Notes: generated by a model from the sequence alone, not told the origin. A stretch of DNA of 64,000 bases from Patescibacteria group bacterium (GCA_038064195.1 JBBTTO010000002.1:630615-694614); one strand, 5' to 3'. Shown: positions 1-54,393, numbered from the stretch's first letter. Program-made: numbers and translations.

Positions 1-266
1 TTCTCGACGATATGGTAAAGCTGGGGGTTGTCTTTCTCCTCGATTTTTTGGGCGCCGGTTGTGGCCAGGACAAGCTTATCTGAAAAGAAAAAACTGCCGA
101 CTGAACTGAAAGTAGCAAAGATGAGCGCTATGATTGCGTAAGAACCAGCTTCATTTCCTGATGCCTTGCCATATATATAGCCAATTGTAGTAATAAAAAG
201 CACAAACAAGACCATGATAACCACAGTCTTACGTTTGTTACTTCCGACAGCATTATAGATATTCAT
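1..266 (-). CDS. HtpX-like (M48) zinc metalloprotease, N-terminal fragment; gene continues beyond window start
   Basis: Reverse-strand ATG at ~266 (not in supplied ORF track; hand-counted) translates to MNIYNAVGSNKRKTVVIMVLFVLFITTIGYIYG...LYHIVE, TM segments followed by an HtpX-like N-terminal region. Lies directly downstream of lemA, a common lemA–htpX-like pairing. Confidence 0.4.
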   Translation of the reverse strand, partial: MNIYNAVGSNKRKTVVIMVLFVLFITTIGYIYGKASGNEAGSYAIIALIFATFSSVGSFFFSDKLVLATTGAQKIEEKDNPQLYHIVE

Positions 267-423: not shown

Positions 424-975
424 CTAGAATGAAACTTTTACTGCTTTTTTCTCTTCTTCTGTAGCAGCAAAGAAGTCTGCTGGCTTGAAGCCGAATAATG
501 ACCCGATAATGTTACTTGGGAATATGTTCAGCTTGGTGTTAAAGTCCAGTACTGTTGAATTCAAGAACTGTCGCGAGTAGGCAATTTTGTTCTCTGTATC
601 AGTCAGTTCATCCTGCAATTTGCCAAAATTTTCGTTGGCTTTTAACTGGGGATAATTTTCCGCAACTGCAAAAAGAGTCTTAAGCGTACCGCTGAGTTCG
701 TTATTTGCCTCGGCTTTTTCCTTAGTGGAATGGGCCTGCATTAAGCTGGTTCGTGCTTTCGTAATGTTCTCAAGAAGTTCTTTTTCATGCTTGGCATAGC
801 CTTTGACTGTCTCGATCAGGTTAGGGATAAGATCAGTCCGTCTTTTGAGCTGAACGTCAATTTGAGAGAGTGCTTCTGAAATACGTAGCTTTGACCGCAC
901 CAGTCCGTTATAGGTGAACCACAGATAAAGGATTATAACTCCGGCTAGCAGCGTAATAATCATTGAAATATTCAT
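424..975 (-). CDS. lemA: LemA family protein
   Basis: 183 aa. N-terminal TM, then a LemA-type region (…[22 protein letters not shown]…[48 protein letters not shown]…). Confidence 0.8.
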
Positions 976-987
976 TCTGTCACCTCC

Positions 988-2751
988 TCAGAGTATAAAC
1001 CACTCATGTAACTTATTATACTCTGTAGCGTTCCAAATGTCATCTTTTGTAGCCCAACCCCGTCTGGCGACAGACACGCCGTACTGCATAAGATCCATTT
1101 GTGATACCGCGTGACTGTCCGTGTTGATAAACAATTTGACTCCATGATTAATGGCCTCTCTGACCATTTTGTCTGAGAGGTCGAGGCGCGAAGGGTAAGC
1201 GTTGATCTCCAGAGCTTTATTTTCAGATTTACAAAAGTCAAAAATCTCCTTCCAGTCCAGATCATAGCCTGGTCTTTCATTAATAAGTCTCCCTGTCGGA
1301 TGGGAGAGTATTTTGGCTTTCGGGTGACTCAGACCTTTAAGAACTCTTTTAGTCATCTCTGCTTTGGACATTGAAAAGACACTGTGAATTGAAACGAGTG
1401 TCCCGTCCAGTAGTTCAAGTGCATCATTTGGCACTGCCAGAGCACCATTAGGCAATATATCCGTTTCGAGTAAAGAAAATATACGAACACTTCTAGTACT
1501 CCTTAGTTGATCAATTTTCTTACTCCGTTGAAGCAAAATTTTATATATTTCTTGCTGAGTATGCTTAGACTGGCTCGGATTATGCTCGGAAAATCCGAGA
1601 TAGTCATAGCCTAAATCGTTAGCCTTTTTTATCATTGTCTCCATTGTGTCTGCACCCATATCGTGACTCGGTTCGATAGGATAGCTGGAGTGGAGATGAA
1701 AATCTCCTTTTATGTCTGATAGCTCGATTAGCTTTGGCAGTTCGTGTTTTTGCGCGAGTTCAATTTCACCGCTGTCTTCACGAAGCTCAGGCGGGATCCA
1801 CTCTAGACCAAGTGCGTGATAAAACTTCTTCTCATCACCGTATTGAATTAGCTTTGAGGGGTTATCTTTCTTTCTGATCCCATACTCTGAGAGTGAGAGT
1901 CCTTTTTTAAGAGCGTATTCACGGAGGTGCACATTGTGTTCCTTACTGCCGGTGAAATGCTGGAGGAGGGAACCGAATGCCTCAGGTGGCTGTACCATGA
2001 GGTCGATATGCTTGCCACCCGAGATCAAAATTGAAGCTGATGCGTCGCCTTTTTCGATAATACGTTCTTTATAGGGGTATTTCGTGAAATACTCGAGTAC
2101 TTTTTGAGGCTCGTTAGTTGCAACAGCGATGTCGACATCGCCGATAGTTTCTTTCCTTCGTCTGAGGCTACCAAGTGGATAGACTTCCTTTACGTCCTTA
2201 CTCATTTTCATGTACTGGACGAGCTTGTCTGCTATCTCACCCGCAAAGGGGAGCGCCATGCGGGTAACTTTATCAACTCCCTGGCCGAATTCCTCAAGAG
2301 CTCGGAGAATATCACTTTGTGACTTCTCGCCGAACCCCTCTAAATCGGCAATTTTGTCTGTCCGGGCCAGTTTTTTTACGTCTGCGATGACGGTTTTGGG
2401 GTCTGTGAGCTTGAAGTGAGATACCAGACGATAGGCTTTCTTAGGGCCAAAGGAGGGAATATCCATAAGCGGGAACAGAGAGAGGGGTATATCCTTCATC
2501 ACGTCATCAAAATGCCTGACTTTGCCGCTCTCCATAAGCTCGGTTAAATGTGCCCTTATAGAGGGGCCTACGCCCGGGAAGCTTTTGAGCCGGTCTTCCT
2601 TGATCAGATCTTTAACTTCTGATGTAGATTGCTCTATTGCGTCTGCTGCCTTTTGATAAGCTATAATTTGGAAGCGGTATTTTTTTTCATCCTTTATGGA
2701 ATAGGCGGCTGCTACGTGACGGAGCAACCTGGCGATATCGTGATTAGTCAT
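988..2751 (-). CDS. polX: DNA polymerase X family protein with C-terminal PHP phosphoesterase domain
   Basis: 587 aa. N-terminal Pol-beta-like HhH/nucleotidyltransferase region (IGDVDIAV motif), C-terminal PHP domain with His-rich motifs (HLHSSY…, FSEHNP…, TDSHAV). Confidence 0.8.
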   Translation of the reverse strand: MTNHDIARLLRHVAAAYSIKDEKKYRFQIIAYQKAADAIEQSTSEVKDLIKEDRLKSFPGVGPSIRAHLTELMESGKVRHFDDVMKDIPLSLFPLMDIPSFGPKKAYRLVSHFKLTDPKTVIADVKKLARTDKIADLEGFGEKSQSDILRALEEFGQGVDKVTRMALPFAGEIADKLVQYMKMSKDVKEVYPLGSLRRRKETIGDVDIAVATNEPQKVLEYFTKYPYKERIIEKGDASASILISGGKHIDLMVQPPEAFGSLLQHFTGSKEHNVHLREYALKKGLSLSEYGIRKKDNPSKLIQYGDEKKFYHALGLEWIPPELREDSGEIELAQKHELPKLIELSDIKGDFHLHSSYPIEPSHDMGADTMETMIKKANDLGYDYLGFSEHNPSQSKHTQQEIYKILLQRSKKIDQLRSTRSVRIFSLLETDILPNGALAVPNDALELLDGTLVSIHSVFSMSKAEMTKRVLKGLSHPKAKILSHPTGRLINERPGYDLDWKEIFDFCKSENKALEINAYPSRLDLSDKMVREAINHGVKLFINTDSHAVSQMDLMQYGVSVARRGWATKDDIWNATEYNKLHEWFIL

Positions 2752-4250: not shown

Positions 4251-4301
4251 AAATGTACGGAAGTAACCATAAACTCACATAGAGTTACTCTCAAACTACT
4301 T

Positions 4302-9231: not shown

Positions 9232-11232
9232 TTACTTCCCCTGGAGGCGGCGCACTTGGTCGCGAAGGAGCATCGCAGTCTCAAAATCCAGTCCCTCTGC
9301 TGCAGATTTCATTTCTTTTCTCAGTTGTTTAATTAACTTTTCTTTTTCATCCGGCAGGAGGACATCTTTCTTACCCATCTTGAGGAGAAAATCAACAGAG
9401 GGCTTGCCTTCTTCTTTTTCTTTTTGCTGCTCGATGAGACGGGCGCGGATAGCCTTATCAATGGTGATCGGCGTAATCCCGTGTTTTTCGTTATACGCCA
9501 GCTGGATTTCACGACGCCTTTCGACCTCATCAATTGCCGCTTTCATAGATTTAGTCATATTATCGGCATACATAATGACCTCACTGTCGATATTTCGTGC
9601 GGCTCGCCCCATTGTTTGAATCAGCGATGTACGGCTGCGTAAAAAGCCTTCTTTATCCGCATCAAGTATGGCTACAAGTGTTACTTCCGGGAGATCAAGT
9701 CCTTCACGAAGGAGGTTAATTCCGACCAGGACGTCTACTTCTCCTAGTCTTAATTGGTCGAGGATATCCTGGCGTTCAAGTGTAATAATATCTGAATGAA
9801 GATAGGTTACTTTGATCTGATGTTCCTGGAGGTATGACGAAAGTTCCTCAGCCATACGTTTGGTGAGGGTTGTCACCAGCACACGTTGGTTTTTAGCCGT
9901 CCGTTTTTTGATTTCCTCAAGCAGGTCTTTAATTTGTCCATCAGTCGGCTTGACGATGACTTTCGGATCGACAATACCGGTAGGGCGGATAAGCTGTTCG
10001 GCCACACCACCTGACTCGGAAGCCAAAGATAACTCATACTCTTCAGGAGTGGCTGACACATACACGGCGCGATTGACATGCCGCATGAATTCTTCAAACC
10101 TGAGCGGGCGGTTATCAAGTGCTGAGGGGAGGCGAAAGCCGTAGTCAATGAGTGTTTCTTTACGCGATCTGTCGCCGTTGTACATGCCTCTGATCTGGGG
10201 GAGAGTGATATGAGATTCGTCAACAACAAGCAGCCAGTCTTTAGTACTGTGATCAAAATAGTCAATAAGGGTATAAGGCGGATCTCCCGGCTTGCGTCCG
10301 TCAAAATAAATAGAATAGTTTTCAATCCCGTTGACGTAGCCGACCTCCCGAATCATCTCAAGATCATATTTAGTTCGCTGTTGGATGCGTTGGGCTTCGA
10401 CCAATTTGCCTTGCGACTTAAGGAATTCAACTTGCTTTTCTGTGTCTCTTGTAATGTTTTTAAAAGCCTCGTCATATGTCTTAGGATCAGTCATGTAGTG
10501 TTTGGCAGGATAGATCATAGCTTTGTTCATAACCTGGAGAGTTTCTCCTGTTAAGGGGTCAAATTCCACGATGCTTGTGATCGAATCGGTACCTAGTTCA
10601 ATCCGTATGCCTGTGTCTATGTAGGCCGGGAGGAGCTCTATCGTGCCTCCGCGTACCCTGAACGTACTCCGACGGAACTCATAATCATTACGATCATATT
10701 GCAAGTCAGCAAGACGTACCAGAATGTCACGTTGGGTTATTTTCATTCCCGGTACAAGCTCGAGCACAAATTTCCCGTACTCAACAGGCGAGCCTAGGTT
10801 ATAAATACATGAGACTGATGCGACAACTATCACGTCTTTACGGCTAAGCAAATTGGTGGTCGCAGACAGGCGGAGCTTATCGATTTCTTCATTGATCTCA
10901 GCTTCTTTTTCGATATAGGTATCGCTGCTCGGGACATACGCTTCAGGCTGATAGTAGTCATAGTAAGACACGAAGTAAGAGACAGCGTTATTCGGGAAAA
11001 AGTCCCTGAATTCCTGATAGAGCTGGGCGGCCAGAGTCTTATTATGTGAGATAACCAGTGTCGGCTTTTGGATTTGTTGGATAACATTTGCCATGGTGAA
11101 CGTTTTGCCACTGCCTGTCACGCCGAGGAGAACCTGGTTTTGTTTTTGTGCCTTGAGGCCTTGCGTCAGCTTGGCTATAGCGTCCGGCTGGTCGCCTGTG
11201 GGTTTGAATTTACTGACTAGCTCAAAATCCAT
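9232..11232 (-). CDS. uvrB: excinuclease ABC subunit B
   Basis: Walker [11 protein letters not shown], beta-hairpin [13 protein letters not shown], helicase motifs, and a C-terminal UVR domain ([14 protein letters not shown]). Start taken at MDFELVSKF (11232) rather than the track start 11280. Confidence 0.9.
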
Positions 11233-11295
11233 GGAGCAATTGTAACATAATATCAACAAAGGTAGGTTTGATATAGACAATAACAGTATGTCTTA

Positions 11296-11325
11296 TTGAC
11301 AAAAATACGCGAAAAGTTCTATGAT
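11296..11325 (+). promoter_or_regulatory. candidate lexA promoter TTGACA-18-TATGAT in the uvrB/lexA divergent spacer
   Basis: Hexamers read directly. No obvious canonical LexA box (CTGT-N8-ACAG or GAAC-N4-GTTC) in 11233..11371. A TTGT-N12-ACAA motif (TTGTAACATAATATCAACAA) is present. Confidence 0.3.
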
Positions 11326-11371
11326 TTTTCTTATACAGTTATTCTGCCCAAATAGATTAACTGCTCACTGT

Positions 11372-12004
11372 ATGCCAGGAGTTTTATACCGCAAAGAAAG
11401 AGAACTACTCACATTTTTAGCCCAATTCCAGTCTAAGAATGGATTTTCCCCGACTCTTCGTGAGATGGCTAATGCCACGGGTCATCGCAGCGTCTCGACC
11501 ATTCATGCTATCATCAGGAATTTAGTTGATAAAGGCTATATCCAAAAAGATGACGGGAACGCCCGTGTGTTGAAGATCAAAGACGAAAATGCTGTGCCGC
11601 TTATCGCTAAGCAAATTCAGCCGTCTGTTGAGTTGCCCCTGATGGGTTTTATAGCTGCCGGACAGCCTTTAGAGCCGCATACGGATCCCAATGCATCGTT
11701 CCAGGTCTCAGCCTCCATGTTATCCGGGAAAAATACGTCGTATGTCCTTCAGGTCAAAGGCGAGTCCATGATAGAGGAGGGAATCTTAGACGGAGACTAT
11801 GTAGTCATCGAAAAAGTCAGCACGGCGACTAACGGCGAGATAGTTGTAGCACTCGTTGATGACAATTTAGCCACGCTTAAGAAATTTTATAAAGAAGATG
11901 GAAGAATAGTACTCAAGCCGGCTAACTCCAAGATGGAGCCTATCTATCCGGGAAGCCTCCGTATTCAAGGCCGAGTCGTCGGCCTCGTCCGCCGTTACCA
12001 ATAA
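11372..12004 (+). CDS. lexA: LexA repressor (S24 peptidase)
   Basis: N-terminal wHTH (RELLTFLAQFQSKNGFSPTLREMANATGHRSVSTIHAIIRNLVDKGYI). C-terminal S24 domain with Ser (VKGESMIEEGI) and Lys (ATLKKFY) catalytic motifs. Divergent from uvrB. Confidence 0.8.
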   Translation: MPGVLYRKERELLTFLAQFQSKNGFSPTLREMANATGHRSVSTIHAIIRNLVDKGYIQKDDGNARVLKIKDENAVPLIAKQIQPSVELPLMGFIAAGQPLEPHTDPNASFQVSASMLSGKNTSYVLQVKGESMIEEGILDGDYVVIEKVSTATNGEIVVALVDDNLATLKKFYKEDGRIVLKPANSKMEPIYPGSLRIQGRVVGLVRRYQ

Positions 12005-29474: not shown

Positions 29475-30908
29475 TCAAAAAGGCATTTCTTCATCTTCAG
29501 CTATAGGAGCTAAATAGCCATAAACACTTCCTAATATTTGTTCAGAGTTTTCAATATTTCTTGCATACTGTTGAGGCAAATGGATATAACCAATTGCTCC
29601 TTTATGTCTTAGAATCCAGGCGTTATACGCAATTACCTCTTCAATCAATTCAGAGTGACCATAATGATGAAATTCAATTAGTTCTTCGACCATTTTGCGA
29701 AGTTGTATTGGCTGGACACTTCCACGCGAGGCTGTTTGTTGAAGCAACCATGAGGCTTCACGAAAATGCTTAGGACCAAGTGTGGCATGCGCCGTATAAA
29801 GAAGATCTTCTGTATCCAGCATGTTCATCGGGTCAAAGATACGAGCGTAGAGAACTGCTGCACTTTTCTTGCCAAGATGCGCCATTCGCATAAATGAATC
29901 TTTAAATTGTTTAGGAGAAAGAAGTGCCTGTCTATCTGAGGCCTGATAAGCTGGGTAAGCAAAAAATCTAAAACCGATTTCTCCATTTATCACATCCATA
30001 TAATGGCCTTTTTCAGGAAGGTCTGCCGTAAGGCGCTGTGCTTCCCCAAGACTTAGTAGGCCACGGGTGAACCAGCTTGTATATGATGGATCGAGGTTCT
30101 TTCCAACCTCTTCGGCATCTGCCATATATTCATCAGGAGGGTAGTCGCCGAAGGTGCTTAGAAGTTGTATTCCAGGAAAACCCCAGCGAGTTGCATCAAC
30201 TCCAAGACGGTCCAGACTTTCAATAGTTGTCTGCGCTGCTGTTTGGAGGGGAGCATTACTTATTCTGGCGACCTCAGCAGCATGCTGCATGAATGTTCTA
30301 GCCATAGGTAAATTGCTATTTTGGCTCACGCTTGTACTGGCTAGTCTAAAATCATCAATATCTGTGTATTGCAAAACATGGGGGAGATAATAGGCAAAAT
30401 TCTGGGCAAAGGTCTTGCCTCCATGATCCACAGCTTGCTCTACTGAGGTGAAGTACTGATTCGGAGATATGTCTTGAGTAATTACATCAGGATATGATCT
30501 TGCAAATTGGGCTCCAACTTTTCTGCCTAAGTGTTGAAAGGCTCTCTTAGTTAAATCTGTATAGTCTTTTACTCCTAGTAACTCATCGTTTTCATCCCTA
30601 GGCAGTTCAGCCAAGTGCTCGAGAAAACGTTCAACATTGAGCGTACCATGTTGTCTGGCAATATACCCAAGGGCTTCGGTCAGGTTGCTATCCCAAAAAG
30701 ACTCTCCGGAAAAGGAATTAGCATATTCAGCTATACCTTTTAATGCATGACTCTCGTCTATGGGAGTCTTCACCCCTGCCTCACGACGCATTTTATTAGC
30801 GAAGCTTTCTCCAGCTGTTGCAAACAAGATGTCTTCAAACTCGGCTCGCATGCGCAGTATTATACACCCTTTAGTACCTAATACGATTGCTTTCCCGCGT
30901 ATTATCAC
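29475..30908 (-). CDS. hypothetical protein
   Basis: 477 aa with no recognisable motif. Its stop codon abuts the tRNA-Lys repeat. Divergent from uvrA with a ~24-nt spacer, or ~80 nt if it starts at internal M20. Confidence 0.45.
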
Positions 30909-30932: not shown

Positions 30933-33836
30933 ATGGAAAAAATAGTCGTTAAGGGTGCCCGTGAGCACAATTTAAAGAATATCGACATGGAAATCCCTAA
31001 GAACAAGCTCGTTGTTCTGACAGGGCTCTCAGGCAGTGGCAAATCCTCCCTCGCCTTTGACACGATCTATGCCGAGGGTCAGCGCCGCTATGTCGAAAGT
31101 CTCTCCTCATACGCGAGGCAGTTTCTGGGCACGATGAAAAAGCCTGACGTAGATCTCATCGAAGGACTGTCTCCTGCAATTTCAATTGACCAAAAGGCAA
31201 GCTCTCACAATCCCCGTTCAACAGTCGGTACAGTCACCGAAATCTATGACTATATGCGTCTGCTTTTTGCAAGAGTCGGACACCCGCACTGTCCTGCATG
31301 CGGACGTGAGATCGCCCGGCAGTCCAAAGAGCAAATTGTCGAGCATGTCCTTACTATGCGTACCACTCAGGCAGATCCCGGTAAAAAATTCGTTCGCGTG
31401 ATGATCCTTTCCCCACTTGTTAAAGATAGAAAAGGAGAATACACCGAGCTCTTTACTTCACTTAAAAAAAGAGGCTACCGCAAAGTACGTATTGACGGAC
31501 GGGTTGTCTCACTTGATGACAAAGTTGTTCTTATCAAAACCAATCGTCATACAATCGACCTGGTCGTAGACGTACTTACTATTGCCGAGGAGACAGACCG
31601 AGTTAGGCTCGCAACAGACGTCGAGCAGGCACTCCAGTTTGGCAACGGCGAGATGATCGTTGCAGTCATTAAAGATGCCTCATTTGATATCCCGGAGTTC
31701 CCAAAGGAGATGGAAGATCATCTTTATTCTGAAAAATTTGCCTGTCCAGTTGATAACATCTCATTATCTGAAGTAGAACCTAGAATATTCTCTTTTAATA
31801 CGCCACATGGCGCCTGCCCTGAATGTTCGGGAATAGGAACAGTGCTTATCATTGATCAGGATCTGGTTTTTAATAAGAACTTAACAATTAACGAGGGTGG
31901 CATCCTGCCATTTTTTAATCTGGGCAATAATGATACCTGGTTCTCACGAACCTTCAAAACATTTTGTGAAGAAAATAAAATCCCGCTTGATATCAAAATC
32001 GAAAAACTTTCTCAGCAACATAAAGACCTTCTTCTTTTTGGGACAGGGGAGAGGGAATACAAAGTCCGGGGCGAGAACAGATGGGGAAGTCAGACCGCCA
32101 TCAGTGAGTCCTTCAAAGGCGTATCATTTGAACTAAAGCGGCGATATGGTGAGTCTGATTCTGCCTATGTCCGGGGACAAATTGAAAAATTCATGAAATA
32201 CGATCTCTGCCCTCTCTGTCATGGTGCCAGACTCAAGCAGGAGGCACTTTCCGTCACCATCAATGATCGGTCAATTGTCCAGGTGAGTGATATGCCGATA
32301 GGGGAGGCGCTTGACTTTTTTGATAAACTGCCCGCGTTACTTTCACCTCGTGAGCAGGAAATAGGCAAGCTCATTTTGCGTGAAATCAAAACCCGCATTG
32401 GTTTTCTGGTCAATGTCGGGCTGGAGTATCTCACTCTCTCACGTACAGCCGCTACTCTGGCGGGAGGAGAAGCACAGCGCATCAGGCTTGCCTCCCAGAT
32501 AGGCAGCGGCCTTACGGGCGTCCTCTATGTATTGGACGAGCCGTCGATTGGCTTGCACCAAAGAGACAATGAAAAGCTCATTGAAACTCTTAAAAAACTG
32601 CGCGACCTCGGAAATACTGTCTTAGTTGTTGAGCATGATGAGGATACTATGCAGGCTTCAGACTATATCTATGATTTCGGTCCGGGAGCAGGCTCTTTCG
32701 GAGGAAGAATAGTAGCCAAAGGGACATTCGCTGAACTCAAAGCCAATCCTGACTCTCTTACCGGACAGTACTTGTCCAAAAAAAAGGTTATCAGGATCAA
32801 AAAAACTGTCGACCCCTCCCTTGTTAAGAAAGAGCCGCAGTTCGTTAAGCTGCTCGGATCCAGCGAGCACAATCTTAAAAATATAGACGTGACATTTCCT
32901 CTCCACCAGCTGATTGTAGTTACCGGTGTTTCGGGAAGCGGCAAGTCCACACTCATCAATGACATTCTCTTTCATGCTTTGATGCAAAAAGAAAATCCAT
33001 TCCATAGACAAAAACCGGGCAAGTTCAAGGAGCTGGTGGGTTTTGAACATATCAAAAATATTTTCCAGATTGACCAGTCGCCGATCGGCCGCACCTCACG
33101 GAGTAATGCGGCCACGTACACAGGCAGCTTTAATTACATCCGGGAGCTTTTCGCCCAGACAAAAGAGGCTAAAGTCAGAGGTTATGGGCCGGGAAGATTT
33201 TCTTTTAATGTCAAAGGAGGCAGATGTGAAGCATGTGAGGGTGAAGGGCAGATCAAAATTGAGATGCAGTTCCTGCCTGATGTGTATATAACCTGTGAGA
33301 TTTGTCAGGGTAAGCAATACAATAATGAAGCCCTTGAAGTGCTCTTCCAGGGTAAAAACATAGCCGACGTGCTGGATATGAGCGTACAGGAAGCAGTCGA
33401 ATTCTTTTCTTTTATTCCGGGCCTTGCTCATAAATTGCAAACCCTTCAGGATGTAGGCCTCTCCTACGTCACGCTCGGTCAACCGGCGCCTACACTATCA
33501 GGCGGAGAGGCACAGCGTGTAAAATTAGCAACCGAGCTGTCCAAGCGGGGCAAGGATGCTCTCTACCTGCTTGATGAGCCTACTACCGGACTTCATTTTG
33601 CCGATCTGGAAAAACTCTTAGTCGTCCTCAGAAAATTAGTTGATCAGGGTAATTCTGTGATTGTCATCGAGCATAATCTGGACGTTATTAAAAATGCCGA
33701 TTATGTCATCGATCTTGGCCCTGAGGGTGGAGCTAAGGGCGGGGAGGTTGTGGCTGTAGGTACTCCTCAGGAAATCGCCAAAAATCCTGCCTCTCATACC
33801 GGCAGATTTCTCAAAAAAGTATTAACGAGCTCATAA
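30933..33836 (+). CDS. uvrA: excinuclease ABC subunit A
   Basis: 967 aa. Two ABC ATPase modules ([23 protein letters not shown]; [13 protein letters not shown]), LSGGEAQR signature motifs, and zinc-finger CxxC pairs. Confidence 0.95.
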
Positions 33837-48605: not shown

Positions 48606-48644
48606 CTCTTGTACATTAAGTCAGATCTTAGGTATGATAGATCT

Positions 48645-49472
48645 ATGCTTAATGTCATAAAAGCAGACGGTACGATTGAACCATATAGTGAGGAAAAGGT
48701 TAAAAACTCTATTAAAAGAGCGGGAGTATCACCTGAACTCCAGACAAAAGTGCTGTCTGACATTAAAGCAAAACTTTACGATAATATCCCGACCTATGAT
48801 ATCTATGGACTGATCACCAGTGCCCTCTCTCACTCCCCGGAGCCGTACAGTAAAGCCCGCTATAGTCTCAAACAAGCCATCATGCTCCTGGGTCCGACAG
48901 GGTATCCATTTGAGGATTTTGTTGCCCGGGTTTTTGAGGAGCACGGGTACCAAACCCAAACCAGACTCATCCTTAACGGACGATGTGTTACCCATGAAAT
49001 CGATGTACTAGCCGAAAAGGACGGTAAAAAAAGCATGGTTGAGGCAAAATTTCATAACAATCCGGGGACGCGTTCAGAAGTCCAGGTTGCTCTCTATGTT
49101 AAAGCACGCTTTGATGATGTGAAAGACAGGTACTCATTTGATGAGGCCTGGATTGTTACCAACACCAAAACGACCATGGATGCCAATTCTTACGCCGAGT
49201 GCAACAATATGAAAGTTATCAGCTGGAATTTTCCTGAAGGAGGAAGCCTGAGAGACCTTATCGAGTCAAGAGAGCTACACCCCGTTACTCTGTTAACAAC
49301 CCTGAACGCCAAACAAAAAGCTCACCTTTTGGCTAATCATACTATTTTGTGCAAAGATCTTAAAAAAAATCCGCAATTACTTGACGTATTAGGCCTGTCT
49401 CATGAGGAAAAGGAGCAGACCACATCTGAAGTGGCCTATATCTGCCAAAACACTCACCACCACGCCCCCTAA
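48645..49472 (+). CDS. ATP-cone domain fused to a Mrr-like PD-(D/E)xK restriction-endonuclease-fold domain
   Basis: N-terminal MLNVIKADGTIEPYSEEKVKNSIKRAG… (ATP-cone). Central …HEIDVLAEKDGKKSMVEAKFHN… (D…ExK nuclease core). Internal start preferred over track start 48609. Confidence 0.55.
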   Translation: MLNVIKADGTIEPYSEEKVKNSIKRAGVSPELQTKVLSDIKAKLYDNIPTYDIYGLITSALSHSPEPYSKARYSLKQAIMLLGPTGYPFEDFVARVFEEHGYQTQTRLILNGRCVTHEIDVLAEKDGKKSMVEAKFHNNPGTRSEVQVALYVKARFDDVKDRYSFDEAWIVTNTKTTMDANSYAECNNMKVISWNFPEGGSLRDLIESRELHPVTLLTTLNAKQKAHLLANHTILCKDLKKNPQLLDVLGLSHEEKEQTTSEVAYICQNTHHHAP

Positions 49473-49521: not shown

Positions 49522-50811
49522 TCAGACTGGATAGCCTGTTTTAGCTAATTTCATTCGCTCGAATTTATCAGCCATCCATCCGTTAGGTGTCGTCGTTAGT
49601 TTAGTCGCATAAACCAGAAAACCATTTCTGACGGTATGGTCACCGAACCTATCGTTAAGCGCGTCGACTACTTTGACAATTTTTTCCTTTTTACGATCTT
49701 CGGGAAGAAGAGTAAGCGGAAGATACTTATTATCCTCCAGTAATCCTGCCCAGACATTCAGCCGTCTGACATAGCCGACCGGTAAGCCTCCGTACTTTTG
49801 CTTAAGGATCTGCATACTCCAGTTAAAAAAGTCCGAGCCGGTATCACTGTATGTTTGCTGGGTAATATGACCATAAGCATTATACGCTCCGAAAATTCCT
49901 ATGCCTATGCTTCTGGCTTTTTTGTTAAGACGGCGCAATTTAAGCCCTATCTCCTCATATAGCTCATAGATGTTTTGCAAGACGATACGTTGATCATGCT
50001 GATTGGTAGCCAAACAATATTGTCTCCCGACAGACTTGACAGTCGGCTCCTGTGTATAAGGGAGGACAGGACGGGGATCGATACCTTGACCGACATCATA
50101 AAGGAAATGCCCTTCTACGTTACCGAACTCTGCTATTAAAAATGTCAAAGGAGCCCGGCGTAACTGCAATAAATTATAAATACCCATAAGCTGTAACCTG
50201 GCTTCAATCCTCGGGCCGATACCGCAGATATCCTGTAATGAGGCCGCGCTGTAGACACTCTCTAGCTGGCTTGGCTTGATAATGACCAGACCGTCAGGTT
50301 TTTTGAGGCCTGAGCCCAATTTAGCCAAAAGCTTGTTATATGAAGCACCTACTGAGACGGTGAGATAGTCACCCAACTCCGCTCGGACTCTTTTTTTAAT
50401 AGCAGCCACAAAATTTTCCACAGTGCCATAGAGATGGATACTGTAGGTAGCATCCATAAATAACTCATCAAGTGAAAAAACCTCGATAAAAGGCGAAAAA
50501 TCTTTGCAAATATCAATAAATTTTTTACTGATCTCCCAGTACTTCCAAAAATCAGCAGGAACAAGCTGAATAGTAGGGCAGATACGCAGCGCATCATACG
50601 TACGGGTAGCTGTGCCTATACCTAACCTCTTAGCTTCACGACTGGAAGCAATGATACAAGTCCTGCCATGAGTAGCAGTCACACCTATAGGTCTGTTACG
50701 AAGAAGGGGATTGCATTGTTGTTCACAGCTTGCAAAAAATGAGTCAAAATCAATATGGAGGATAGTACGTTTGGTTGAATTAGTTGCTTTCTCCATCAAA
50801 AGTATCCTCAA
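49522..50811 (-). CDS. dinB: Y-family DNA polymerase (DinB/UmuC-like)
   Basis: ILHIDFDSFFASCEQ…, SLDELFMD, and GIGPRIEARL HhH motifs. 429 aa. Confidence 0.8.
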   Translation of the reverse strand: MRILLMEKATNSTKRTILHIDFDSFFASCEQQCNPLLRNRPIGVTATHGRTCIIASSREAKRLGIGTATRTYDALRICPTIQLVPADFWKYWEISKKFIDICKDFSPFIEVFSLDELFMDATYSIHLYGTVENFVAAIKKRVRAELGDYLTVSVGASYNKLLAKLGSGLKKPDGLVIIKPSQLESVYSAASLQDICGIGPRIEARLQLMGIYNLLQLRRAPLTFLIAEFGNVEGHFLYDVGQGIDPRPVLPYTQEPTVKSVGRQYCLATNQHDQRIVLQNIYELYEEIGLKLRRLNKKARSIGIGIFGAYNAYGHITQQTYSDTGSDFFNWSMQILKQKYGGLPVGYVRRLNVWAGLLEDNKYLPLTLLPEDRKKEKIVKVVDALNDRFGDHTVRNGFLVYATKLTTTPNGWMADKFERMKLAKTGYPV

Positions 50812-51028
50812 GTATCCAAAAGAGAGTAGTCGTGTTCAGACTCAGACGAAAATACAGATTACCAGCACTAACACTGAAGATATGGTAAAGAGTGCGGCCT
50901 GACTCACGAGTGTGATGATTACCGATCTTCGTAATTGTATAAATTCGGCTTCGCCATTTAAGCCGCCAAGGAAATGCTTTTGACTTTGTATGATCATAGA
51001 TAGTAATAACACTTACTTTTTCATTCAT
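50780..51028 (-). CDS. hypothetical small protein between the lexA-like gene and the Y-family polymerase (uncertain)
   Basis: 82-aa ORF (MNEKVSVITIYDHTKSKAFPWRLKW…) overlapping the polymerase start. Sits where UmuD/YolD-type accessory genes lie in mutagenesis cassettes. No motif recognised. Confidence 0.3.
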   Translation of the reverse strand: MNEKVSVITIYDHTKSKAFPWRLKWRSRIYTITKIGNHHTRESGRTLYHIFSVSAGNLYFRLSLNTTTLFWILEDTFDGESN

Positions 51029-51170
51029 TATTAAAACTCGAATACCAAATATCGAAATCCGAAATAATACTCAAATCAGGATGTTTAAAATTCAAAACGT
51101 TTTTGTCATTTTTATTTAGAAAATTTGGATTTGTTTCGGGTTTCGTATTTCGTGCTTCGAATTTAGCTAG

Positions 51171-51740
51171 CTACCTATACTTTCTGATAACACTGGCGAC
51201 TATCCCTCCGATGACGAGGCTTTCTTTGGGCTCTATGACGGGATAGTCAGGATTGGCGGGGGCGAGATAGATCCTGCCGTTTTGTTTTTGGAAATACTTG
51301 ACCGTCCATTCGCCATCGACATTGGCTGCGACTATATCACCGTTACGGGGGGGTGCGTCTTTTTCTACGATGACGATGTCTCCATCATTGATCCCTTCTC
51401 CGCTCATCGACTCTCCTCTGACGGTCAGTGAGAAAATATCTCCCGGCATATCAAGGAGATATTCATAGAAATCAATGCTATCTCCCAAGGATCCCTCCAC
51501 AGGGGCCGGATAGCCTGCCCTGATCAGACCCAAGTGGGGGATATGAAAGAGTTTCTTGGGAAGGAGCTTACCCTTTTCATCCTTCGCCAAGATATCTACC
51601 TCGACCAATTTATTGACGAGATAAACTGCCGCGTTTTTAGATGAGTAGCCGAACATATCACAGATTTCCTGATATGAAGGCAGGCGACGCTGTACTTTAT
51701 AAAATTTACGGAGTTTTTTAATTGCTTTCTCTAAATCCAT
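51171..51740 (-). CDS. second LexA-like S24 peptidase repressor (LexA/UmuD/CI family paralog)
   Basis: Start taken at MDLEKAIKKL… (51740); the track ORF extends to 51800 across a GC hairpin. wHTH (YQEICDMFGYSSKNAAVYLVNKLVEVDIL), Ser motif GESMSGEGI, Lys motif VKYF. Confidence 0.75.
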   Translation of the reverse strand: MDLEKAIKKLRKFYKVQRRLPSYQEICDMFGYSSKNAAVYLVNKLVEVDILAKDEKGKLLPKKLFHIPHLGLIRAGYPAPVEGSLGDSIDFYEYLLDMPGDIFSLTVRGESMSGEGINDGDIVIVEKDAPPRNGDIVAANVDGEWTVKYFQKQNGRIYLAPANPDYPVIEPKESLVIGGIVASVIRKYR

Positions 51741-51880
51741 AAAATAATTTTCCCTTATAATCCCTCTCCTTGAAGGAGAGGGCAGCCTGCCTGCAGGCAA
51801 CGGGTGAGGTCTGCTTTAAGCCTCACTGTACATTTGTATTGTCTTTCGTCACCCCTGGTGATGCACTCTATTGTACGAAT

Positions 51881-51896
51881 GTACAAGAAGTATAAT
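51881..51896. promoter_or_regulatory. perfect-arm 16-bp palindrome TTGTACGAATGTACAA: candidate operator overlapping the predicted −10/+1 of the lexA-like/polY operon
   Basis: Arms TTGTAC/GTACAA are exact reverse complements. On the minus strand a TTGACG-18-TATACT promoter-like pair lies immediately 5' of it. Confidence 0.4.
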
Positions 51897-52009
51897 GTGT
51901 ACGTTCGTTCAACGTCAAGATGACAAAGTAGATCAATATGGATAAAAAAATGAAGAGAATGAGTAGGCGAGGCGGACCAATAAAGGTCCGCCTCGCCACA
52001 AAAGTTGCT

Positions 52010-52555
52010 CTATGGGATATCGGGCTTCTCATCTGCGATTCTCTGTTCCCGTTCAGAAAGTGCAGACGCTGGTAGCGTCTCTGATGGAGATGTTGATTCC
52101 TCTCTAGGTGCCAGAGGATCACCAACCACTCTCACCACTTGAGCACGAACCTTTTCGAGATTGACTCCGAGTGACTCGAGTACGCCGGCTCCAATTCCTT
52201 CGCCTTCCCGGACAAGTCCGAGCAAGATGTGCTCAGTGCCGATGTAGTGATGGTTGAGCTGACGAGCTTCATCAATTGCAAGCTCGATAATCCTTTTGGA
52301 TCGAGGAGTAAGGCTGATCTCACCAACGACAGCTTCTTCTCCACGCCCAATGATGAACTCAACGGCAGAGCGAACTTTATGTAACCGAACTCCCATGTTT
52401 TCCAGGATGCGTGCTGCCACCCCATCTCTTTCCCGAACGAGTCCGAGGAGGAGATGCTCAGTGCCGATATAACCATGGTTGAAGCGCAACGCCTCTTCCT
52501 GAGCCAACGTGAGCACCTTTCGTGCTCGACGTGTGAATTTATCAAAATCAGACAT
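52010..52555 (-). CDS. standalone Clp N-terminal (Clp_N double-repeat) domain protein
   Basis: Two Clp_N repeats: FTRRARKVLTLAQEEALRFNHGYIGTEHLLLGLV and LTPRSKRIIELAIDEARQLNHHYIGTEHILLGLV. ATG at 52555 preferred over track start 52807. Confidence 0.7.
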   Translation of the reverse strand: MSDFDKFTRRARKVLTLAQEEALRFNHGYIGTEHLLLGLVRERDGVAARILENMGVRLHKVRSAVEFIIGRGEEAVVGEISLTPRSKRIIELAIDEARQLNHHYIGTEHILLGLVREGEGIGAGVLESLGVNLEKVRAQVVRVVGDPLAPREESTSPSETLPASALSEREQRIADEKPDIP

Positions 52556-52833
52556 GAGATTGGTCCTTTCAACGTGAGCGGCTTGCCTTTTCTCCCAATT
52601 GAGCAAAGGTCGCCGTACAAAAACTCTATGCTTGATAAAATTTTTATACAGCAACCCTTGCAAGAGCAACTTGTTAAGGTACGTAATAAGAGAAAGAACG
52701 CAATTGTTCTTTCCTTGGAGGGAGTATAGCAAATATAAGATGCAAAATAAACCTATAGTCAGTATGTTTTGGGTTGATTCGCCTTGTAGCTTATTTGACA
52801 AGCCCAAAAGCCATATCTATACTTCAAAAGACT

Positions 52834-54393
52834 ATGCCTCTTGCAAATGAGACACAACCATCGCCAGCTACTGACTTTTCTGCCCAGGTAGTTGATATAC
52901 CTAAATTGGAGTCTACACTTACGAGTCTTACATCTTTTACCAAGGAAAGACCACAGATTGTTCCAGGAGCTATTGACACAACAGCGAGAGAATTCATTGT
53001 CAAAGCAGCTGAAGAGGCAAATACTTTTAAGACAAACTTTGAGAAGCAAGAAAATATTCTTACTCCTTCTGAAAGAACAAGAATTAGTGAATGGGTGCGT
53101 AAAGATGAAGGCGAGACAGGGATGCATCAATTAGAACAATTGGGTAGAGCCTGCATCCGTCTCTGGAGCAGCGTGGGGAGATCAACAGGCACAGAAACAG
53201 AGAAAAAAATGTCAGGGCTTCCGGGACATGATAAAAGACATTTACTCCAAGACTTAACTGCCGGGTTACAATTTCGAAATGATGTCGTAAGTGCAGAAGC
53301 TGGAAACAAAGATGAATATCAGAAAATCGGACTGATTGGTTCGTTACTTCATGATGTAGGTCGGTTAGCGGAGGAACGGGTTGTCGGAACACCTGTAGGA
53401 GGAGAGCAAGGAGACAAACATACTGAACTTTCATTCTATATCGCTAAGCAATTATTTGATGCTTTCCCTCAACTTGATCAGGCAGTAAGAGATCATATTC
53501 TTTATTCAATTCTAGTACATCAAAAATGGCCAAATAAATCAGAAGAGGAAACAATAGGCTATCAAATGACCATGAATGAACCGCTTAACCGAAGCGTAAT
53601 GGGTTCCGATAGACTTCAACTGGTAGGCCCCGAAGCAATTCTACGCTTTATTGGCTTTGATATTGGAGAATCAGACAAGCCACTGGATTTTGATACCAAA
53701 GTCAAACCAGAACGCAAAGAGGCATTAGATAACAAAGCTGAAACAGATCTGTCAGAACATATTGAATTCTACATGCGTAACCTTCTTCCAGTTGAAGTGC
53801 CGGGCAGTCCGCAAGCAGCCAATAACGCTGTTAATCAGCGTTGTAATCTACTTCGGGCTATTTCAGGTGCGTATCTTTGGTTATCATCAAGTGATGAAAT
53901 CCGTAAGCAAATTTTCGCCCCAGAGCTAGCCCGGGACAGAGGAGAAACAGTTGATGAGGTTAAATTAGCGACCAATAAAAAGCGTATTCTTTCTAAGGAA
54001 ATTTGGGGGGAAATTAAAGGTCAGATAGCTGCCATTGAGTTTCCTGATATTCAAACCGGAATAAAAACGGAAGTTCAACAATTGACGAGCACAAAATCCC
54101 TTGAAGAGATTGTTATGAGTTTTGTTAAGGCCGAAAATGCATCAACTACCCAAAAAGGGATAACAAAAATTAAAGAAAAAGTAGGGAAGATAACTGACCC
54201 AGCAGCTACTGAGCGACTAAAGGTAGGGATCGGATACGCTCTAGCTATGCGTGATCGACTTTCTAGAAATACTTTAAAAACGATCTCTGCGATGAATAAT
54301 GACCTACCCCACTTCCCGGCGCATAGTTTGGAAAAATCATTCTCTCAATTCGTCCTCAATAACTACCCAGTAACTTTACAGCAAGCAACCTGA
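52834..54393 (+). CDS. large HD-domain protein (divergent)
   Basis: H…HD…H…H…D pattern: GHDKRHLL, GSLLHDVGR, DKHTEL, ILVHQK. About 300 aa of C-terminal sequence without recognisable motifs. Start at MPLANE preferred. Confidence 0.5.
   Translation: MPLANETQPSPATDFSAQVVDIPKLESTLTSLTSFTKERPQIVPGAIDTTAREFIVKAAEEANTFKTNFEKQENILTPSERTRISEWVRKDEGETGMHQLEQLGRACIRLWSSVGRSTGTETEKKMSGLPGHDKRHLLQDLTAGLQFRNDVVSAEAGNKDEYQKIGLIGSLLHDVGRLAEERVVGTPVGGEQGDKHTELSFYIAKQLFDAFPQLDQAVRDHILYSILVHQKWPNKSEEETIGYQMTMNEPLNRSVMGSDRLQLVGPEAILRFIGFDIGESDKPLDFDTKVKPERKEALDNKAETDLSEHIEFYMRNLLPVEVPGSPQAANNAVNQRCNLLRAISGAYLWLSSSDEIRKQIFAPELARDRGETVDEVKLATNKKRILSKEIWGEIKGQIAAIEFPDIQTGIKTEVQQLTSTKSLEEIVMSFVKAENASTTQKGITKIKEKVGKITDPAATERLKVGIGYALAMRDRLSRNTLKTISAMNNDLPHFPAHSLEKSFSQFVLNNYPVTLQQAT

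Follow-up and report, generated by a model that had tools for sequence, protein, structure and literature searches.

We analyzed a 64-kb stretch of DNA from a Patescibacteria group bacterium (GCA_038064195.1, JBBTTO010000002.1:630615-694614; hereafter, the window), which makes up ~6% of a ~1.08-Mb genome, and the window scans reported below were limited to those 64 kb. The subject is a cassette on the minus strand (49522..51740) in which three close-packed open reading frames (ORFs) occur in the order lexL, orf82, polY. A preliminary description, made from the sequence alone, had noted a second S24 repressor, an 82-aa ORF, and a Y-family polymerase on this strand; all three ORFs were found where it placed them, and the domain assignments held. 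The first, lexL (51171..51740, minus), encodes a short LexA-family repressor of 189 aa (Peptidase_S24, E 2.7e-27), an identical copy of which is on record as an S24 family peptidase of Patescibacteria group bacterium. The second, orf82 (50780..51028, minus), encodes an 82-aa protein with an all-beta model and no family in Pfam, NCBIfam, PHROGs, or PADLOC. The third, polY (49522..50811, minus), encodes a DinB-like Y-family DNA polymerase of 429 aa. The canonical pair of uvrB (9232..11280, minus) and its partner lexA1 (11372..12004, plus), also noted earlier, lies elsewhere in the window.

The polymerase carries the Pfam domains IMS (6e-39), IMS_HHH_1, and IMS_C, and its translation shows the catalytic motifs DFDSFF and SLDE. 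Its scores against the Pol IV models of NCBIfam are all below the cut-offs (the best being 219 vs. 381 and 214 vs. 256), yet it is far closer to Pol IV than to UmuC, the model of which gives 90 bits. Relatives align from residue 13, and the likely start codon of polY is therefore the ATG at 50796, where polY and the last part of orf82 overlap.

Paired boxes at the cassette promoter

A consensus scan located TTGACG-18-TATACT on the minus strand (51918..51889), as had been described, and returned it as the only good sigma-70-like promoter in the cassette region. It has 10 of 12 consensus matches and an 18-nt spacer between the −35 (TTGACG, 51913..51918) and the −10 (TATACT, 51889..51894). Downstream from polY lies a convergent gene with ATP-cone and Mrr domains, and no dnaE-like gene comes next. 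Given the single good promoter upstream and the convergent gene downstream, the three genes therefore appear to form one transcription unit.

Two putative operator boxes overlap this promoter. Box 1 (minus strand, TTGAACGAACGTACAC, 51897..51912; position-specific scoring matrix [PSSM] score 20.7) fills the spacer between −35 and −10 and holds the full box TGTACGTTCGTTCA (51898..51911). Box 2 (minus strand, TTGTACATTCGTACAA, 51871..51886; PSSM 22.1) is a perfect palindrome. It is the 16-bp palindrome TTGTACGAATGTACAA of the preliminary description, which put it at 51881..51896, 10 bp from its actual place; the further statement that it sits at the predicted +1 was right, as the −10 ends at 51889 and the palindrome overlaps the expected +1. 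The extra half-sites announced at 51868 and 51911 are not there; instead, there is the second full box (box 1) and a weak third box-like site at 51826..51841 (minus strand, CAATACAAATGTACAG; PSSM 11.3). This third site is probably not functional, and it is not kept in the leader-bearing relatives L082 and L085. In the window, GTAC occurs in three of the four half-sites of the two boxes. A PSSM scan found no other strong LexL-type boxes in the 64 kb, and none at uvrB or uvrA.

The significance of the boxes comes from their position and from conservation at related loci, not from the palindrome itself. A palindrome count was rejected as a measure of significance, with 26 perfect 6-4-6 palindromes in the window versus 16.5 ± 4.4 in shuffles, and TGTAC-N4-GTACA with up to one mismatch gave 2 window matches versus 1.0 expected. 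An exact search of the window for GAAC-N4-GTTC returned no match; allowing up to one mismatch gave 13 matches versus 24 expected, with nothing meaningful among them except box 1. As both searches were uninformative, the half-site was relaxed to G[AT]AC for further work.

A metagenome scan with LexL yielded relatives at 52–86% identity, to which locus L141 was added by exact-protein look-up. The gene order lexL, orf82, polY is kept wherever the contigs of the relatives reach far enough. Ten promoters form the close clade (the window, L081–L087, L089, and L141; LexL identity 69–86%). Both boxes occur at the same places in 10 of 10, 25–29 bp apart, and TTGAC of the −35 is kept throughout; the flanks and the leader differ, with a distance from box 2 to the ATG that ranges from ~3 to ~130 nt. 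The 20 sites read T-T-G-[A/T]-A-C-[G/A]-A-[A/T]-C-G-T-[A/t]-C-A-[A/G] (consensus TTGWAC-N4-GTWCAA), in which the core G, A, and C are invariant and the half-sites switch between GAAC and GTAC only. More distant relatives carry one box only, located between −35 and −10, which is TAGTAC-N4-GTACTA in L090 and L001 and AGAAC-N4-GTTC in L092 and L093, the canonical GAAC-N4-GTTC being seen in distant members of the clade.

From these comparisons, the LexL operator appears to be a variant of the Cheo box (GAAC-N4-GTTC), namely TGWAC-N4-GTWCA, with A or T tolerated at the second core position. The close-clade sites show the 4-bp inverted half-sites, the 4-bp spacing, and the promoter overlap that characterize such boxes. 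Thus, the GTAC half-sites of the preliminary description are real, as part of a Cheo-type box with GAAC/GTAC exchange, but the kinship with the E. coli-type CTGT-N8-ACAG that it also saw is refuted. That reading fails because the W position varies and neither the outer TT/AA nor the T of GTAC is fixed; CTGT-N8-ACAG is matched only by chance, in GTAC boxes with a C/G flank (e.g., L086).

Two further boxes were seen in relatives. In L090, the lexL promoter with its TAGTACGATCGTACTA box (1..30 and 735..760) is duplicated ~730 bp upstream, before a NYN/LabA-like gene. In L141, a third strong box (TTGTACATTCGTTTAA, 4257..4272; PSSM 18.8) lies inside the orf82 homolog, ~60 bp before the polymerase start, and has no equivalent in the window.

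A scan of species-representative genomes extended the comparison, with loci sorted by their better score to LexL or to LexA1 and all counts made among the matches listed. A box was counted if G[AT]AC-N4-GT[AT]C occurred without mismatch in the 120 bp upstream; the loci themselves have a background of 0.007 such sites per 120 bp. It was present at 48 of 66 LexL-type loci, which come from many phyla; among the 27 of these with a downstream Y-family polymerase gene, 22 had it. Of the 21 loci with a better score to LexA1, only 2 did. In the LexL-type loci, it lies nearly always between a TTGAC −35 and the −10. The set includes bins labeled Planctomycetia, Verrucomicrobia, Nitrospirota, Victivallales, Saccharibacteria, and Gallionellales/Sideroxydans. 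Erill 2016 reportedly describes other LexA motifs for some of them, and the motif of gamma- and betaproteobacterial LexA is CTGT-N8-ACAG. As the LexL-type set spans phyla reported to have other LexA motifs, the box therefore seems to travel with the protein clade and not with the host.

LexL and the canonical LexA1

The alignments and the predicted structure indicate that LexL is a complete LexA-type repressor, and its model scores suggest a divergent member of the LexA family, not an equivalog. The cleavage-site and catalytic residues (A75-G76, S111, and K148) are invariant in 21–22 aligned sequences and align with their canonical LexA counterparts. LexL aligns over its full length (from residue 9) with Thermotoga maritima LexA (3k2z) and from residue 20 with Escherichia coli LexA, and the sequence alignment to LexA structures takes in helices 2–3. 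The AlphaFold2 model (predicted local distance difference test [pLDDT] 80.8) has helices at 3–17, 23–30, and 35–47 plus a short two-strand wing, and its winged helix-turn-helix (wHTH) is modeled with a pLDDT of ~90 (residues 20–60). Fold comparison gave as best matches, both full length, 3jso (LexA in complex with DNA) and 3k2z (T. maritima LexA). The wing region is ~13 residues shorter than that of canonical LexA.

A phylogeny of the two paralogs had been suggested as a check. A rough neighbor-joining tree puts them in different groups: LexL falls in a short-LexA clade that shares the ~13-residue wing gap, with Sideroxydans-type betaproteobacterial proteins as its sister, and LexA1 joins approximate reference sequences of E. 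coli and Bacillus subtilis LexA.

LexA1 is the canonical LexA of the window, scoring 175.3 bits against TIGR00498, above the cut-off. It has 7491 relatives at E ≤ 1e-20; the best 120 of the 7491 are 75–92% identical, and some are named Levybacteria. Its orthologs carry PF01726 plus PF00717. Upstream of six orthologous lexA1 genes (L132–L137, around 1380..1500), a conserved (T)ATACGA-N4-TCGTAT(A) lies between −35 and −10 (PSSM 22–25.5), with an invariant CGA/TCG core. The window has a degenerate form of this repeat (TACGCGAAAAGTTCTATG, 11306..11323, plus; PSSM 7.0) that has lost its right arm, and it may be that LexA1 autoregulation is weakened in this genome, going by the degenerate repeat in the lexA1 promoter (11285..11330). 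Scans for the LexL-type box at the lexA1 promoters of the window and the six orthologs found none, the best PSSM scores being 1.5–9.6 versus 16.6–26.4 for true sites; the earlier statement that the canonical lexA promoter has no comparable box is thereby confirmed. Conversely, a PSSM scan of the cassette promoter did not find the LexA1-type repeat. The proposal that the two LexAs use different operators thus gains support from the comparison, as the LexA1 orthologs have another repeat and no LexL-type box, and the sequence evidence favors two RecA-responsive repressors with different operators. In a different sample, a single contig carries a LexA1 ortholog plus a lexL / 87-aa / polY operon with two boxes, and therefore the coexistence of the two LexAs is not peculiar to this genome.

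As a side observation, an inverted repeat TAATACG-N12-CGTATTA (30875..30905) lies upstream of uvrA (30933..33836) and immediately precedes a TATAAT −10. The arms are similar to LexA1-type half-sites, although they are spaced differently.

The boxes could in principle be operators of LexA1, with LexL acting only as a UmuD-like polymerase accessory whose N-domain does not bind DNA. Several observations speak for this: the C-domain of LexL does better than LexA1 on the UmuD model NF007621 (92.4 vs. 64 bits) and matches a phage "UmuD-like" family, lexL lies directly upstream in a cassette with a Y-family polymerase gene, as umuD does, and the recognition helix of LexA1 (SVSTIHAII) is similar to its counterpart in B. 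subtilis LexA, a protein that binds GAAC-N4-GTTC (again with an approximate reference sequence). However, the lexA1 promoter of the window and its six orthologs are without such a box and carry a different repeat, and the box accompanies the LexL clade in phyla with a LexA that reportedly binds other motifs. The N-domain of LexL is also a conserved, confidently modeled wHTH with invariant residues. UmuD has no such domain, and LexL, with 75 residues of wHTH N-domain in place of a short cleavable tail, misses the UmuD model cut-off of 110. We therefore regard this alternative as quite improbable. Palindromes in the LexA family's own promoters are the mark of autoregulation; here, the boxes are present and conserved, binding is predicted, and LexL most likely recognizes its own box.

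Proposed regulation and comparison with known systems

We think it likely that lexL-orf82-polY is a self-contained, damage-inducible operon for translesion synthesis that is repressed by LexL itself, with LexA1 running a separate regulon. LexL dimers would bind the two TGWAC-N4-GTWCA operators, one in the −35/−10 spacer and one over +1, and the bound repressor would exclude RNA polymerase and so keep its own operon silent. Upon DNA damage, filaments of RecA on single-stranded DNA would trigger self-cleavage of LexL at Ala75-Gly76 by Ser111/Lys148, as the conserved residues suggest. Cleavage would free the promoter, leading to synthesis of the polymerase along with new repressor, and the system would reset. 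LexA1 would act through its different inverted repeat, giving two RecA-responsive repressors with nonoverlapping operators. A local, self-contained regulon fits the boxes seen in the 64 kb. The "two-tier SOS circuit" of the preliminary description is something that we infer from sequence comparison.

A number of points weigh against this proposal. LexL reaches only 98.1 bits against the TIGR00498 lexA model (positions 22–202 of 203), below the cut-off of 110.95, and Pfam LexA_DNA_bind (PF01726) gives no match to it. No recA, the presumed source of the inducer, was found in the 64-kb window. LexL may control more genes, given that ~6% of the genome was scanned and that a NYN-domain gene stands behind the duplicated box of L090. 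Taxon labels of metagenome bins can be wrong, which bears on the argument from host phyla. The specificity of LexA1 is moderately supported by the comparison: Its repeat rests on six orthologs, the right arm overlaps the −10, and the window copy is degenerate. Finally, gene content, residues, fold, promoter, and boxes, with their conservation and co-distribution, were observed or computed, but it is from these that we infer DNA binding, cleavage, and induction, as well as the role of orf82.

The orf82 product occupies the least supported step of the model. Nevertheless, orf82 is a real gene: Proteins at 40–63% identity are found between lexL and polY in the metagenome relatives, and database homologs reach up to 88%. 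A profile search returned 473 clusters at 50% identity (E ≤ 1e-3). The model is a seven-strand all-beta fold (pLDDT 74); there was no sequence match in the PDB, and a Foldseek search of the PDB gave none (best E 0.66). DUF6504 (PF20114) was considered: The window protein has no match, and the matches of 18 of 39 family members are sub-threshold (best E 1.2e-5); those inspected one by one reach ≤21 bits versus a gathering threshold of 24.2 and cover the N-terminal half of the profile only. In the cassettes of other phyla, no orf82 homologs were found, save a weak one in L058. Outside the cassette, L138 (723..1293) has an orf82-like gene followed by polY without lexA, with a TTCGG-N6-TTCGG direct repeat upstream (a similar repeat also precedes the Magasanikbacteria lexA in L062). 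In L139/L140 (2146..3954), lexA (with a GAAC-N4-GTTT box) is followed in turn by a 59-aa ORF rich in Cys, by an orf82-like gene, and by radC. On the strength of these contexts, orf82 seems tied to damage-response loci, with no strict link to either the polymerase or LexL. It would be translationally coupled to polY, and most likely its product assists or modulates the polymerase, or else modulates the SOS state or is another SOS effector.

A role as a corepressor is a lesser alternative, suggested by analogy with UmuDAb, a UmuD homolog that serves as a repressor together with DdrR, a small corepressor (PMC11332147). In the fullest version of this idea, LexL would have a dual function, its cleaved C-fragment (76–189) being a UmuD'-like partner of the polymerase and orf82 a DdrR-like corepressor that would assist LexL in binding the two boxes. 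Apart from the UmuDAb precedent, it draws on the UmuD-like score of the LexL C-domain, on the two close operators, which would suit cooperative or assisted binding, and on the orf82 relatives beside lexA without a polymerase (L139: lexA, 59-aa ORF, orf82-like gene, radC). But the polymerase is DinB-like and not UmuC-like, and DinB-type enzymes need no UmuD'; in L138, orf82 accompanies polY at a locus that lacks lexA, which does not fit an obligate corepressor; and orf82 is unmatched in all four family databases. We consider the dual function unlikely.

A third possibility is that the module is what is left of a prophage or an integrative element, with a CI/LexA-like phage repressor and a phage polymerase that have no part in the cell's own damage response. 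LexL and polY do match phage families (phrog_4 repressor, phrog_811 UmuD-like, and phrog_1268 polymerase), the spread of the cassette over many phyla is patchy, and decayed copies exist (L085 and L001). Yet the GC content of the cassette equals that of its surroundings (0.41–0.44), the flanking proteins scanned show no phage-like Pfam families, the downstream ATP-cone/Mrr neighbor is the same in a second genome, and LexL is of the LexA type, with a wHTH, and not of the CI type. Such an origin strikes us as extremely improbable. A foreign island found no support, given the absence of a GC anomaly and of phage-like Pfam families among the flanking proteins scanned, and a role in anti-phage defense was rejected on the absence of a PADLOC match.

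The closest known counterpart of a LexL-repressed operon is lexA2-imuA-imuB-imuC(dnaE2) of Pseudomonas putida, in which a second LexA heads an error-prone cassette, is co-transcribed with it, and represses it via its own operator, beside a LexA1 that runs the main regulon (PMC5261740, PMC3901139). As there, a second LexA paralog comes first in an operon with an error-prone polymerase. Unlike the P. putida cassette, the present one has no imuA (RecA-fold), no catalytically dead ImuB, and no DnaE2; its only polymerase is DinB-like and retains intact catalytic motifs, the second gene encodes an unrelated beta protein of 82 aa, there are two operators instead of one, and the host is a member of the Patescibacteria. 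The LexA2 box of P. putida is reportedly GTAC-N4-GTGC, which has the same architecture as the cassette boxes.

LexL also resembles the noncanonical LexA of Betaproteobacteria (Sideroxydans lithotrophicus), which is of the same short type with the same wing-region gap. A Sideroxydans metagenome-assembled genome (L037) and Gallionellales loci (L029–L031) have GAACG-N2-CGTTC-type boxes in the gene's own promoter, between −35 and −10, and often two of them. The betaproteobacterial protein reportedly bound GAACGaaCGTTC in electrophoretic mobility shift assays and is said to be the general SOS regulator of the cell (as reported by Sanchez-Alberola et al. 2015, J Bacteriol 197:2622, a paper cited in PMC8565304). 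LexL differs in being only ~36% identical and in coexisting with a canonical LexA. Also, four betaproteobacterial loci among the matches listed have lexA, then a umuD-like gene, then a Y-family polymerase gene, without orf82.

Other S24 proteins offer partial parallels. UmuDAb of Acinetobacter is a self-cleaving S24 protein with a DNA-binding N-domain and a regulon consisting essentially of error-prone polymerases, in which the small DdrR is involved (PMC11332147, PMC8565304). Unlike in the cassette, UmuDAb replaces LexA in a LexA-less genus, its operator is large and atypical with a 5-bp core, and the polymerases are of the UmuC type. S24 regulators of Bacteroidetes and streptococcal HdiR are self-cleaving and often lie beside an error-prone polymerase gene, with a palindrome in their own promoter, and paralogs of this type evolve new palindromes (PMC8565304). 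In contrast to the LexL wHTH, they have a lambda-CI-like multi-helical HTH, and their motifs are GGA-N5-TTC as well as CTAA-N5-TTAG. In the Bacillus operons yolD-uvrX and yqjX-yqjW, a small nonenzymatic YolD-like protein is encoded directly ahead of a Y-family polymerase gene to which it is coupled, with a GAAC-N4-GTTC LexA box in control and no repressor gene known in these operons. The position of orf82 just upstream of the polymerase is similar, but there is no detectable sequence relationship to YolD, and 39 members of the orf82 family gave no match to YolD-like Pfam at E ≤ 1. Two LexAs in one genome are also known in Leptospira (PMC3789691), and part of what we describe may already be covered in the Patescibacteria SOS paper of Sanchez-Osuna et al. 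2017 (Environ Microbiol 19:3465).

The cassette thus extends a known theme, that of a second LexA over a mutagenesis operon, to a new lineage and gene set, and it leaves the known logic of SOS regulation unchanged. What differs from known systems is the active DinB-like polymerase together with the orf82 family, the paired operators, and the host lineage. Patescibacteria have minimal genomes and are mostly uncultured; two RecA-responsive repressors plus a privately regulated error-prone polymerase would mean that mutagenesis under control repays its cost even for a genome of ~1 Mb. The analysis also yields a well-defined operator consensus for a widely dispersed clade of short LexA proteins, a candidate for a different operator of Levybacteria-type canonical LexA, and a large uncharacterized protein family (orf82) tied to SOS-type loci. 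More tentatively, and as a speculation that we would not put at even odds, short-wing LexA plus a Y-family polymerase could be a portable mutagenesis module with its own operator, spread horizontally over many bacterial phyla and independent of the host LexA, for which Patescibacteria recruited the orf82 family. If so, orf82 would represent a new class of SOS-controlled polymerase accessory, in the role of UmuD', YolD, or ImuA.

Leader, flanks, and other observations

Between box 2 and the lexL start codon lies a structured 5' leader of ~140 nt (51741..51881, minus), with a minimum free energy of −46.2 kcal/mol (z = −3.15). Its hairpins are at 51762..51782 (10-nt arms), 51785..51798, and 51804..51826; the 8-bp GC hairpin that had been placed at 51826..51846 is not present. 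The leader is missing in L083, L084, L086, and L141, where box 2 ends 3–5 nt before the ATG, and it appears from this comparison to be a lineage-specific insertion. On the opposite strand (51760..51811, plus), there is a sub-threshold match to the Rfam family whalefall-1 (RF01762), the sole Rfam result in the region (27 bits, with the gathering score at 37; E 2e-5, the search having covered a 201-bp region). The whalefall-1-like match consists of two hairpins plus a GGGUGAGG tail.

On the upstream side, a gene with a Clp_N domain ends at 52010, and after it comes a 13-bp GC-rich hairpin (51966..51997, minus; GGCGAGGCGGACC-tttatt-GGTCCGCCTCGCC) with a T-run further on, which marks the 5' boundary of the cassette. 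The inner arms were recovered by a hairpin search, and a terminator scan gave the hairpin no score. The Clp_N-domain ORF has a long upstream extension that overlaps the start of an ORF of 539 aa on the opposite strand (52774..54393, plus; no Pfam or PADLOC family), and its real start is probably an internal Met near 52554. Adjoining the polymerase side, the ATP-cone domain is fused to an Mrr-type restriction endonuclease domain (48609..49472, plus). In the second genome, this gene (L141, 6949..7570) is a few small genes away from the cassette.

The two lexA-type promoters of the window share an exact TGTC[AT]T[AC]TTGAC element (11289..11300, plus; 51914..51925, minus), and relatives also show a TTGAT[AC]TAG-like stretch ~10 bp further upstream. 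The element could be an UP or extended −35 element typical of the lineage or a site for a common factor. Its enrichment is not significant (3 vs. 1.1 expected), the third match, with one mismatch (41473), being within a coding region.

Two decayed copies of the cassette were seen among the relatives. In L085 (3691..3879), orf82 is truncated, and in L001 (4001..4818), the lexL match is in two pieces (possibly a frameshift) with orf82 present; no polymerase was found in either. In cassettes from other phyla, unrelated inserts occupy the space that separates the lexA-like gene from the polymerase gene (L012, 1613..2014; L022, 2400..2751; L045, 4556..4975), which by sequence appearance look like PemK/MazF-like toxin and four-helix-bundle proteins of the 23S rRNA intervening-sequence type.

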